DNA from: Candidatus Baldrarchaeota archaeon
GTDB lineage: Archaea > Asgardarchaeota > Baldrarchaeia > Baldrarchaeales > DXJG01
Assembly: GCA_019056805.1 (NCBI GenBank)
Contig: DXJG01000001.1
Span: 1-32,000 of the forward strand
DNA: 32,000 bases
Direction of reading: 5' to 3'
Below the pieces are notes generated by a model. That model was not told where the DNA came from. It searched no databases and saw nothing but the letters and a program-made list of their open reading frames with translations. Every line of letters begins with the position of its first letter. Within the stretch, counting starts at the first letter, position 1. The position numbers were made by a program, and so were the translations under genes. Below, in pieces: positions 1 to 28,990 of this stretch.

Positions 1-352
1 CCTACGGGACTTTCACCCTCTATGGTGTGACGTTCCAGTCAACTTCGGCTTCCCAACCTGGACCTTAGGAAATGCCCTACAACACCACATCTCCCTTTCG
101 GGATTCAGTTTGCTCTGTTCCGCGTTCAGTCGCCCCTACTAACGGAATCCCTGTTGGTTTCTTTTCCTGCGGGTACTAAGATGCTTCAATTCCCCGCGTT
201 CCCGACCCTTACGGGTCGCCCTAACGGGCAGGAAGTCCCATTCGGGAATCCCATGTTCAAAGGCTGTATGCGCCTCGCATGGGCTTATCGCAGCTTACCA
301 CGCCCTTCATCGGCGTTCCAAGCCAAGCCATCCCCCAGATAGGATAGTGGAT
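1..352 (-). rRNA. rrl: 23S rRNA, 5' portion (continues beyond the left edge of the window; 5' end approximate)
   Basis: The reverse complement reads ...CTGGGGGATGGCTTGGCTTGGAACGCCGATGAAGGGCGTGGTAAGCTGCGATAAG...GAATTGAAGCATCTTAGTACCCGCAGGAAAAGAAA..., the conserved domain I start of archaeal 23S rRNA. It is GC-rich against an AT-rich background. Confidence 0.97.
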
Positions 353-359
353 AAACAGA

Positions 360-450
360 ATATCTGGATATCACCAGACACAGGGGCTTATGCACGACCT
401 TCATCTAAAATCCAGTCCTTCATCCATAACCTTGCGATTATGGATTGCAC
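360..450 (-). other. Pre-23S spacer with probable processing-stem arm and small hairpins
   Basis: Minus-strand GATGAAGGTCGTGCATAAGC (386-405) resembles the conserved archaeal pre-23S spacer segment. Hairpins TCTGG-N6-CCAGA (363-378) and CCATAA-N8-TTATGG (424-443). The partner arm would lie downstream of the 23S, outside the window. Confidence 0.55.
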
Positions 451-455
451 CTACA

Positions 456-529
456 TGGACCCGGCGGGATTTGAACCCACGGCCTCCGCCTTGCAAGGGC
501 GGCGCTCTACCAGACTGAGCTACGGGCCC
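456..529 (-). tRNA. tRNA-Ala(UGC), no intron, CCA not encoded
   Basis: GGGCCCGTAGCTCAGTCTGGTAGAGCGCCGCCCTTGCAAGGCGGAGGCCGTGGGTTCAAATCCCGCCGGGTCCA: complete cloverleaf, anticodon TGC, G3:U70 pair. Confidence 0.98.
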
Positions 530-641
530 ATATCATTTAGTTGTGTAAGTTGTTTGTTTTTTAATTTTTTCTCTGATATTTATTGGGTTGTGTTTTGTGA
601 TTTGAGTTTGTAAATGAGATTGCTTTGGTGGGTGATGTTGT

Positions 642-5391: not shown

Positions 5392-5550
5392 TGGTGCGGG
5401 GGGTGGGATTTGAACCCACGTAGGCTTGCGCGGTTTATTTCCTCTACGCCAGCGGATCTTGAGTTTCGGCCAGGTTTTTAGGGGGCCTGTCCGCCGCCTT
5501 TGATCGAGCCCCTTGATATTTGGTCTTTGACCTGGCTCGGCCACCCCCGC
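5392..5550 (-). tRNA. tRNA-Leu(CAA) with three introns (5500-5526, 5465-5490, 5426-5443); CCA encoded
   Basis: Removing the 27-, 26- and 18-nt inserts gives GCGGGGGTGGCCGAGCCAGGTCAAAGGCGGCGGACTCAAGATCCGCTGGCGTAGGCCTACGTGGGTTCAAATCCCACCCCCCGCACCA (88 nt, type II tRNA). Each junction folds as a bulge-helix-bulge (BHB). Confidence 0.93.
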
Positions 5551-5577: not shown

Positions 5578-5593
5578 ATATATATTGTTTTCT
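5578..5593 (-). promoter_or_regulatory. Candidate BRE/TATA promoter of tRNA-Leu
   Basis: Minus-strand GAAAACAATATATAT about 28-42 nt upstream of tRNA G1. Confidence 0.5.
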
Positions 5594-28883: not shown

Positions 28884-28990
28884 TGGTGGGGCCGCCGGGA
28901 TTTGAACCCGGGACCAGCAGCTCCCGAAGCTGCCATCATACCAAGTTTCCCGCCCGATGAAAAACTCATCGAGCTCTAGACCACGGCCCC
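28884..28990 (-). tRNA. tRNA-Pro(CGG) with a 30-nt D-loop intron (28946-28975); CCA encoded
   Basis: The spliced product GGGGCCGTGGTCTAGCTTGGTATGATGGCAGCTTCGGGAGCTGCTGGTCCCGGGTTCAAATCCCGGCGGCCCCACCA forms a cloverleaf with anticodon CGG. The insert folds as a 9-bp hairpin within a relaxed BHB. Confidence 0.93.

Follow-up and report, generated by a model that had tools for sequence, protein, structure and literature searches.

The window analysed here is a stretch of 32,000 nucleotides of an uncultured Asgard archaeon, Candidatus Baldrarchaeota (class Baldrarchaeia; contig DXJG01000001.1, positions 1 to 32,000). Within it, positions 5550..5392, read on the minus strand, resemble a leucine tRNA broken at three places, none of them the site 37/38. 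The locus raises the question of whether this is a genuine gene from which three introns are removed, and, if so, by what means and in what order, and how far such a gene departs from what is already on record for archaea.

A tRNA-Leu(CAA) gene interrupted three times

The gene is 159 nt long, and pre-tRNA position i corresponds to window position 5551-i. The precursor begins with the acceptor strand GCGGGGG and ends with the T-arm, CCCCCGC, A73 and an encoded CCA (window 5394-5392). Exon 1 (5527..5550, pre-tRNA 1-24; this and all following segments on the minus strand) comprises the 5′ strand of the acceptor stem, U8, the 5′ strand of the D-stem and the D-loop as far as A21. It is followed by intron 1, of 27 nt (5500..5526, pre-tRNA 25-51), at site 21/22 on the border of D-loop and D-stem. 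Exon 2 (5491..5499, pre-tRNA 52-60) spans A22-G30 and thus supplies the 3′ strand of the D-stem, G26 and the first four bases of the anticodon stem, which is then interrupted at site 30/31 by the 26-nt intron 2 (5465..5490, pre-tRNA 61-86). A31, the anticodon loop CUCAAGA with the anticodon CAA at window 5461-5459, the 3′ strand of the anticodon stem and nucleotides 1-8 of the variable region make up exon 3 (5444..5464, pre-tRNA 87-107). Intron 3, of 18 nt (5426..5443, pre-tRNA 108-125), lies in the variable arm, and exon 4 (5392..5425, pre-tRNA 126-159) carries the rest of that arm, the T-arm, the 3′ strand of the acceptor stem, A73 and CCA.

Removal of 27, 26 and 18 nt leaves an 88-nt sequence that ARAGORN reads as tRNA-Leu(CAA), with a full class II cloverleaf, A73 and CCA. 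ARAGORN and our own cloverleaf scorer concur on a 7-bp acceptor stem, U8, a D-arm with G18G19, a 5-bp anticodon stem with a 7-nt loop and U33, and the T-arm loop GUUCAAAU; the variable region of the spliced tRNA is given by ARAGORN as 14 nt with a 3-bp GC stem. Upstream, a candidate TATA-like A/T-rich box read from the sequence, ATATATAT, lies at 5578..5585 on the minus strand, 28-35 nt before the mature 5′ end, and other species of the genus have TTTATAAAT at an equal distance in its place.

The unspliced gene was not found by ARAGORN in its default mode or with -i, -i0,200, -io or -if. In the low-stringency mode (-ps) the program returned an 'Arg(ccg)' with a 65-nt intron, which we rejected as a false call. 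The Rfam tRNA model stayed below its cut-off on the gene (20.2 bits against 29, E 0.11) and matched the 3′ part only. The earlier note on this DNA, made from the sequence alone, had warned that standard annotation could miss the gene and had proposed ARAGORN in intron mode as a check; the warning is borne out by the Rfam model and by ARAGORN in both its default and its intron modes, and the check itself misses the unspliced gene while accepting the spliced 88-mer as Leu(CAA).

The solution was recovered independently by an enumerator of our own that was blind to the proposal. It collects every 4-bp helix that lies between two 3-nt bulges, deletes up to four of these candidates at a time in every combination and scores the remainder on cloverleaf geometry only. 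Thirteen BHB-like candidates were listed in the gene, and the best solution removed 25-51, 61-86 and 108-125 and left the anticodon CAA. Since the candidate rules are loose and yield many false solutions in AT-rich DNA, only GC-rich products accepted by ARAGORN were kept.

The identity, the anticodon, the three positions (21/22, 30/31 and variable arm), the lengths and the junctions that the earlier note had proposed stand with ARAGORN, with the enumerator and with an orthologue in Baldrarchaeum yapensis described below. We conclude that window 5550..5392 is a genuine tRNA-Leu(CAA) gene interrupted by three introns.

BHB motifs of the three introns

All of the BHB motifs listed in that note were found in the pre-tRNA sequence, and the central helix has four standard pairs, G-U counted, in each of the three introns. 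In intron 1 the helix GGUC(19-22)/GAUC(46-49) lies between bulges AAA and AAA, with an inner stem of 2 bp and an outer helix of 0 bp; its 3′ bulge forms the shorter strand of an internal loop, which the D-stem would close. Intron 2 has the helix CGGC(55-58)/GCCG(81-84), bulges GGA and AAA, a 4-bp inner stem CAGG/CCUG and two outer pairs (G54-C88 and G53-U89). The helix of intron 3, GCGU(102-105)/GCGC(120-123), is flanked by bulges AGA and AAG, by an inner GG/CC (2 bp) and by one outer pair.

When flanking helices of at least 2 bp were demanded on both sides, intron 2 alone passed and introns 1 and 3 failed. Only intron 2 is thus a strict hBHBh′ motif, and introns 1 and 3 are relaxed, HBh′-type motifs; with outer helices of 0 and 1 bp, these two call for an enzyme of broad specificity, which is assumed here. 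A run of A's lets the junction of intron 1 shift, and a single A lets that of intron 2 shift by one position, with the product unchanged; the exact cut sites of these two introns therefore rest on the BHB rule.

Orthologues with and without the introns

The neighbouring ValRS assigns the genome to Candidatus Baldrarchaeota, being 92% identical to that of isolate Yap30.bin4.67 and 75% identical to that of B. yapensis. The three-intron gene recurs in two further genomes of the genus (G001 and G002), with 89-90% identity. In the alignment of the three congeners 1 of the 88 exon positions is variable (an A/G difference in the T-loop), against 16 of the 71 intron positions plus two indel columns. 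The intron changes all fall in hairpin loops or inner stems, and none affects a central helix or a bulge.

The orthologue of B. yapensis lies upstream of the same ValRS gene and has a single intron, at 30/31. This intron is 28 nt long and unrelated in sequence, and has the helix CGGC/GUCG and a 5-bp inner stem. Elsewhere the orthologue is uninterrupted: it reads GGTCAAAGGCGG unbroken, which is the junction predicted for intron 1, and GGCGTAGGCCTACG unbroken, which is the junction predicted for intron 3, and the predicted mature sequence differs from it by one base of the D-loop. At the level of sequence, then, an orthologue that lacks introns 1 and 3 shows exactly where the predicted junctions fall. 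Chance is excluded as a source of the three-intron structure by the blind enumerator, by the orthologue that reads the predicted junctions and by the disparity between exon and intron variation.

The 30/31 intron is shared within the order. Introns at 21/22 and in the variable arm were seen in this genus only, among the Leu(CAA) genes examined, and the same two sites also bear introns in other leucine isoacceptors. Three congeners and one outgroup orthologue thereby show two intron sites exactly as they read with and without the insert, and are useful material on the origin of introns.

Among the contigs of four DNA runs, only that of the probable source sample spans the gene, unchanged, and the others break at the conserved 3′ exon. 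An apparent joint of 5425 to 5525, considered as an intron-less allele, was rejected: it has unidentified letters between its two sides, the sides are short, and it most likely stems from a paralogous Leu gene.

Central helices in other leucine tRNA genes

Of the five leucine isoacceptors encoded here, four have an intron at site 21/22. An exon strand GGUC is matched by GAUC, GAUU or GGCU in the intron, with the four pairs kept, and an exon strand GGAC, found in Leu(UAA) both here and in B. yapensis, by GUUU or GUCC. The change from GGUC to GGAC, with the accompanying shift of the intron strand, alters both sides of one pair. Three further genes retain three of the four pairs at this site. At site 30/31 the intron strand is GCCG here and GUCG in B. 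yapensis, both of which pair with CGGC, and the inner stems are unrelated (CAGG/CCUG, 4 bp, against CGGGG/CCCCG, 5 bp). In a distant Asgard genome (G006), Leu(UAA) is interrupted at the same phosphodiester of the variable arm by an intron with the same GCGU/GCGC helix and the bulges AGA and AAG, and the 5-bp inner stem and sequence of that intron are unrelated to those of intron 3. The leucine genes of this and related genomes thus show pairing-preserving changes in the central helices.

Splicing enzymes and proposed maturation

The genome has two genes with an EndA domain (two PF01974 matches), and it encodes RtcB. The EndA alpha subunit, of 184 aa, finds its best match end to end in the Aeropyrum pernix catalytic subunit 3P1Z_B (E 1.4e-44). 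It retains the His of GIDHAPF, and aligns with 3P1Z_B without a gap across the Crenarchaea-specific loop, K39 and K41 falling at the positions of A. pernix K44 and R46. The second, beta-like paralogue, of 178 aa, has Val at the catalytic His position, as would be expected for a structural subunit. Subunits were typed by the positions of the Methanocaldococcus jannaschii EndA triad.

In A. pernix EndA, the Crenarchaea-specific loop and its K44 confer cleavage of non-canonical and relaxed motifs (Hirata et al. 2011, PMC3241643), and an (alpha-beta)2 make-up of EndA has been reported for 44 of 60 Asgard genomes (Goswami et al. 2026, preprint 10.64898/2026.10.13.758758). The likeness to the A. pernix (alpha-beta)2 enzyme (PDB 3P1Z) lies in the alpha loop, with Lys/Lys at K44/R46, and in the presence of a second, His-less paralogue; the difference is that the beta-like paralogue found here is closest to 1A79, the subunit of the M. 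jannaschii homotetramer, and not to a crenarchaeal beta subunit. The two paralogues fit an (alpha-beta)2-type make-up with putative broad specificity. The earlier note had deduced a broad-specificity endonuclease from the introns and suggested that endA be typed: typing points to a two-subunit set, a catalytic alpha and a His-less beta, and the deduction sits well with an alpha subunit that has the K39/K41 loop and a paralogue that has lost the His.

With these components, maturation would proceed as follows. Each intron would pair with the exon directly upstream, forming a 4-bp helix between two 3-nt bulges; a heteromeric, (alpha-beta)2-type EndA would cut after the second nucleotide of each bulge; RtcB would join the four exons into an 88-nt class II tRNA with A73 and the encoded CCA; and the mature tRNA-Leu(CAA) would read UUG. 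We infer from the sequence that cleavage and ligation take place, and that they do so at these phosphodiesters. Very probably, then, the gene yields a 159-nt precursor from which three protein-spliced introns, none at 37/38, are removed by alpha/beta EndA and RtcB to give an 88-nt tRNA.

Precursor folding and the order of splicing

In nearest-neighbour folding of the free RNA, the minimum free energy (MFE) structure of the precursor pairs exon positions 12-17 with intron positions 41-46 (CGAGCC/GGCUCG) and forms a mature-like anticodon stem that uses the first A of intron 2. Both the MFE structure and the ensemble disfavour the BHBs of introns 1 and 2 (BHB1 and BHB2), with pair probabilities below 2%, and the cost of forcing BHB1, BHB2 and BHB3 at 37 °C is 5.1, 3.1 and 1.9 kcal/mol, respectively. 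In this free-RNA model, therefore, BHB1 and BHB2 failed as preferred folds of the precursor. The result is a caveat and not a refutation, because the comparative data favour the BHB helices and because an enzyme can capture a minor conformer.

The GGCUCG of intron 1 (window 5505-5510) is perfectly complementary to CGAGCC in the D-arm exon (5534-5539) and is kept in all three congeners, and the helix that they form (precursor 41-46 with 12-17) competes with the BHB of intron 1.

The earlier note had also suggested that splicing may be ordered, on the ground that the motifs of introns 1 and 2 use neighbouring or overlapping exon bases (G23-G24). In its strong form, intron 2 would have to leave before intron 1: BHB2 and the D-stem compete for G23, G24 and C25, and intron 1 has no possible outer helix other than the D-stem. 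Read from the sequence, the pairs of BHB2 join C25-C28 to the intron and G23/G24 to U33/C32, to the exclusion of the D-stem. In the model, moreover, BHB2 becomes costlier once intron 1 has been removed, by 6.0 kcal/mol here, 2.2 in G001 and 0.8 in G002 (37 °C), and the cost of BHB1 is nearly unchanged by removal of intron 2. The size of the effect on BHB2, however, is not conserved among the three congeners and is smaller at 70 °C; no two of the three BHB central helices overlap, and a single structure can hold all of them; and the energies are those of free RNA, with the enzyme ignored. In B. yapensis, moreover, the gene has an intron at 30/31 and none at 21/22, and forcing its BHB has a comparable cost in the model (4.4 kcal/mol); removal of intron 2 does not, therefore, require intron 1. 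An obligatory order is accordingly unlikely and is not indicated by the model, which suggests at most a weak bias for intron 2 to leave first. What survives of the suggestion is that BHB2 uses G23/G24 and that its modelled cost rises without intron 1; an effect that varies among congeners, and helices that can coexist, speak against the rest.

Retention of intron 3 and decay of the gene

The removal of all three introns was also weighed against the reading that the 18 nt of intron 3 are retained in an enlarged variable arm, which would leave two introns and a tRNA of 106 nt. Class II tRNAs tolerate long variable arms, and the outer helix of the intron 3 BHB is a single base pair. The insert nevertheless has complete helix and bulge geometry, and once it is taken out the variable arm matches exactly that of the orthologue without the intron and those of four other leucine isoacceptors here. 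Its loop evolves fast among the three congeners while helix and bulges are invariant, and in the distant Asgard Leu(UAA) the corresponding phosphodiester carries an unrelated insert that shares its helix and bulges. We consider retention very improbable and keep to the removal of three introns.

That the locus is instead a decaying pseudogene, neither spliced nor used, with UUG read by tRNA-Leu(UAA), is scarcely credible: standard finders reject the gene and a Leu(UAA) gene is present in the genome, but the exons are near-identical in three congeners while the intron loops diverge, every cloverleaf pair, A73 and CCA are intact, the candidate TATA-like box is kept at the same distance in congeners, and no other Leu(CAA) gene was found in the 91%-complete assembly.

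Possible origin of intron 3

Searched with BLAST against the genome, introns 1 and 2 found no relatives above chance. Intron 3, together with four exon bases, shares an exact 16-mer, GTAGAGGAAATAAACC, with the junction of a D-loop intron in tRNA-Thr(UGU) (G000:C9:4085-4206, plus strand; locus L130:1507-1628), the match lying within window 5422-5450. The blastn-short E-value against the genome is 0.006. Among 577 pairs of introns from different genes the 16-mer is the longest shared word, and 200 shuffles gave at most 12 nt. The two introns have a common layout of helix, AGA, GG, A-rich loop, CC, helix and AA.

These features raise the possibility that intron 3 is a recent gain, copied from the Thr(UGU) D-loop intron at a shared site directly after GUAG, with the 3′ half of the helix re-tuned from GCCA to GCGC. 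Since the motif itself dictates 9 of the 16 shared bases, the rest are A-rich and the loop of Leu intron 3 differs in the congeners, copying is only possible, rather than shown, and we regard it as doubtful. If true, it would be a concrete, datable transposition of a tRNA intron in an Asgard archaeon. No general signal of intron copying has been reported for Asgard tRNA genes (preprint 10.64898/2026.10.13.758758). In Thermoproteales, transposition of introns between tRNA genes is described by Fujishima et al. 2010, as cited in PMC4090602 and in the same preprint. The resemblance to those cases is that intron 3 and the Thr(UGU) intron lie at different positions in unrelated tRNAs and share a 16-nt word and a layout; the difference is that there is one such pair only here, and that its introns are short and A-rich.

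Other tRNA genes of the genome

No second Leu(CAA) gene was found in the 91%-complete assembly, and window 5550..5392 is the only one identified in it; UUG accounts for 12% of Leu codons in long ORFs. ARAGORN's other 'Leu caa' (C9:16939-17035) proved to be a tRNA-Asp(GUC) with one intron.

Twenty-six tRNA genes were resolved to a product accepted by ARAGORN: five without introns, ten with one, six with two and five with three. This census is partial, since Rfam marks 37 tRNA-like places and about ten of its matches lie outside the 26 resolved genes. Three-intron genes therefore number at least five in the genome, namely Leu(CAA), Leu(CAG), Ser(CGA), Ser(GCU) and one Met(CAU). tRNA-Leu(CAG) (G000:C6:68169-68316, plus strand; locus L126:20-167) is 148 nt long, with introns at about 15/16, 21/22 and 37/38; its spliced anticodon loop is CCCAGGA, with C33 in place of the near-universal U33. 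Spliced products accepted by ARAGORN were likewise obtained for the three-intron genes of tRNA-Ser(CGA) (G000:C6:65991-66156, plus strand), tRNA-Ser(GCU) (G000:C6:176417-176564, minus strand) and tRNA-Met(CAU) (G000:C9:2375-2533, plus strand). On the unspliced sequences of these three, ARAGORN gave miscalls, as Cys, Asp and Gly.

Two further tRNA genes were noticed in the window, both on the minus strand. tRNA-Pro(CGG) (28887-28990) has one non-canonical intron of 28 nt in the region of the D-arm (precursor 25-52); ARAGORN's own readings of it, a 73-nt Pro that lacks the 5′ part by default and Thr(ggt) in intron mode, were rejected. At the start of the window (1-530) lies the 5′ end of a 23S rRNA gene (1-359), preceded by an intron-less tRNA-Ala(UGC) (456-529), which is a spacer tRNA arrangement. 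At least 23 of the resolved tRNA genes end in an encoded CCA; the figure comes from a second enumerator in which CCA was required.

Finders thus lose an expected Leu(CAA), which falls below threshold. Since finders lose tRNAs that are split by introns, tRNA complements and inferences on codon reading drawn from such metagenome-assembled genomes will be wrong unless the introns are handled.

Comparison with known systems

Three-intron tRNAs were first described in Pyrobaculum (PMC4390854), and the earlier note regarded them as best known in Thermoproteales. That view is out of date, as multi-intron tRNAs of Asgard archaea have been published (PMC11291895; 10.64898/2026.10.13.758758). In complete genomes of Atabeyarchaeia and Freyarchaeia, introns occur in 92-95% of tRNA genes, and several in more than half (Valentin-Alvarado et al. 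2024, PMC11291895); an Atabeyarchaeia Leu(CAA) of 175 nt, with three introns observed, is among them (PMC11291895, Supplementary Data 4). In a survey of 90 Asgard genomes, 30% of the inserts, most of them in the D-arm, escaped annotation tools (Goswami et al. 2026, preprint 10.64898/2026.10.13.758758). Baldrarchaeia are named in the text of neither study, and a literature search for Baldrarchaeota with intron returned no paper. The present gene is accordingly a clean, comparatively validated case in a class without described tRNA introns in the literature searched.

Relative to the three-intron tRNA described earlier outside the Asgard archaea, the likeness is in three BHB introns per gene and in a broad-specificity heterotetrameric endonuclease, here predicted. 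The phylum and the isotype are different, and the gene described here is class II, has an intron in its variable arm and lacks one at 37/38. The likeness to Atabeyarchaeia and to Freyarchaeia/Jordiarchaeia is closer in phylum, which is the same, and in the presence of several short BHB introns per gene at non-canonical sites; theirs lie in the D-arm, the anticodon stem, the variable region and the T-arm, and many were missed by annotators. The two EndA paralogues, which are consistent with an (alpha-beta)2 enzyme, are a further point in common with the Asgard multi-intron systems. The present genome differs in belonging to another class, Baldrarchaeia, and in having about 1.4 introns per gene, as counted over the 26 resolved genes, against 2.0-2.4 in the focal families. 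Knowledge of mechanism is unchanged, as three-intron tRNAs, Leu(CAA) included, are on record in other Asgard archaea, and this genome holds at least four more. The three-intron tRNA-Leu(CAA) of Baldrarchaeia is a well-supported example of the published Asgard pattern and not a new kind.
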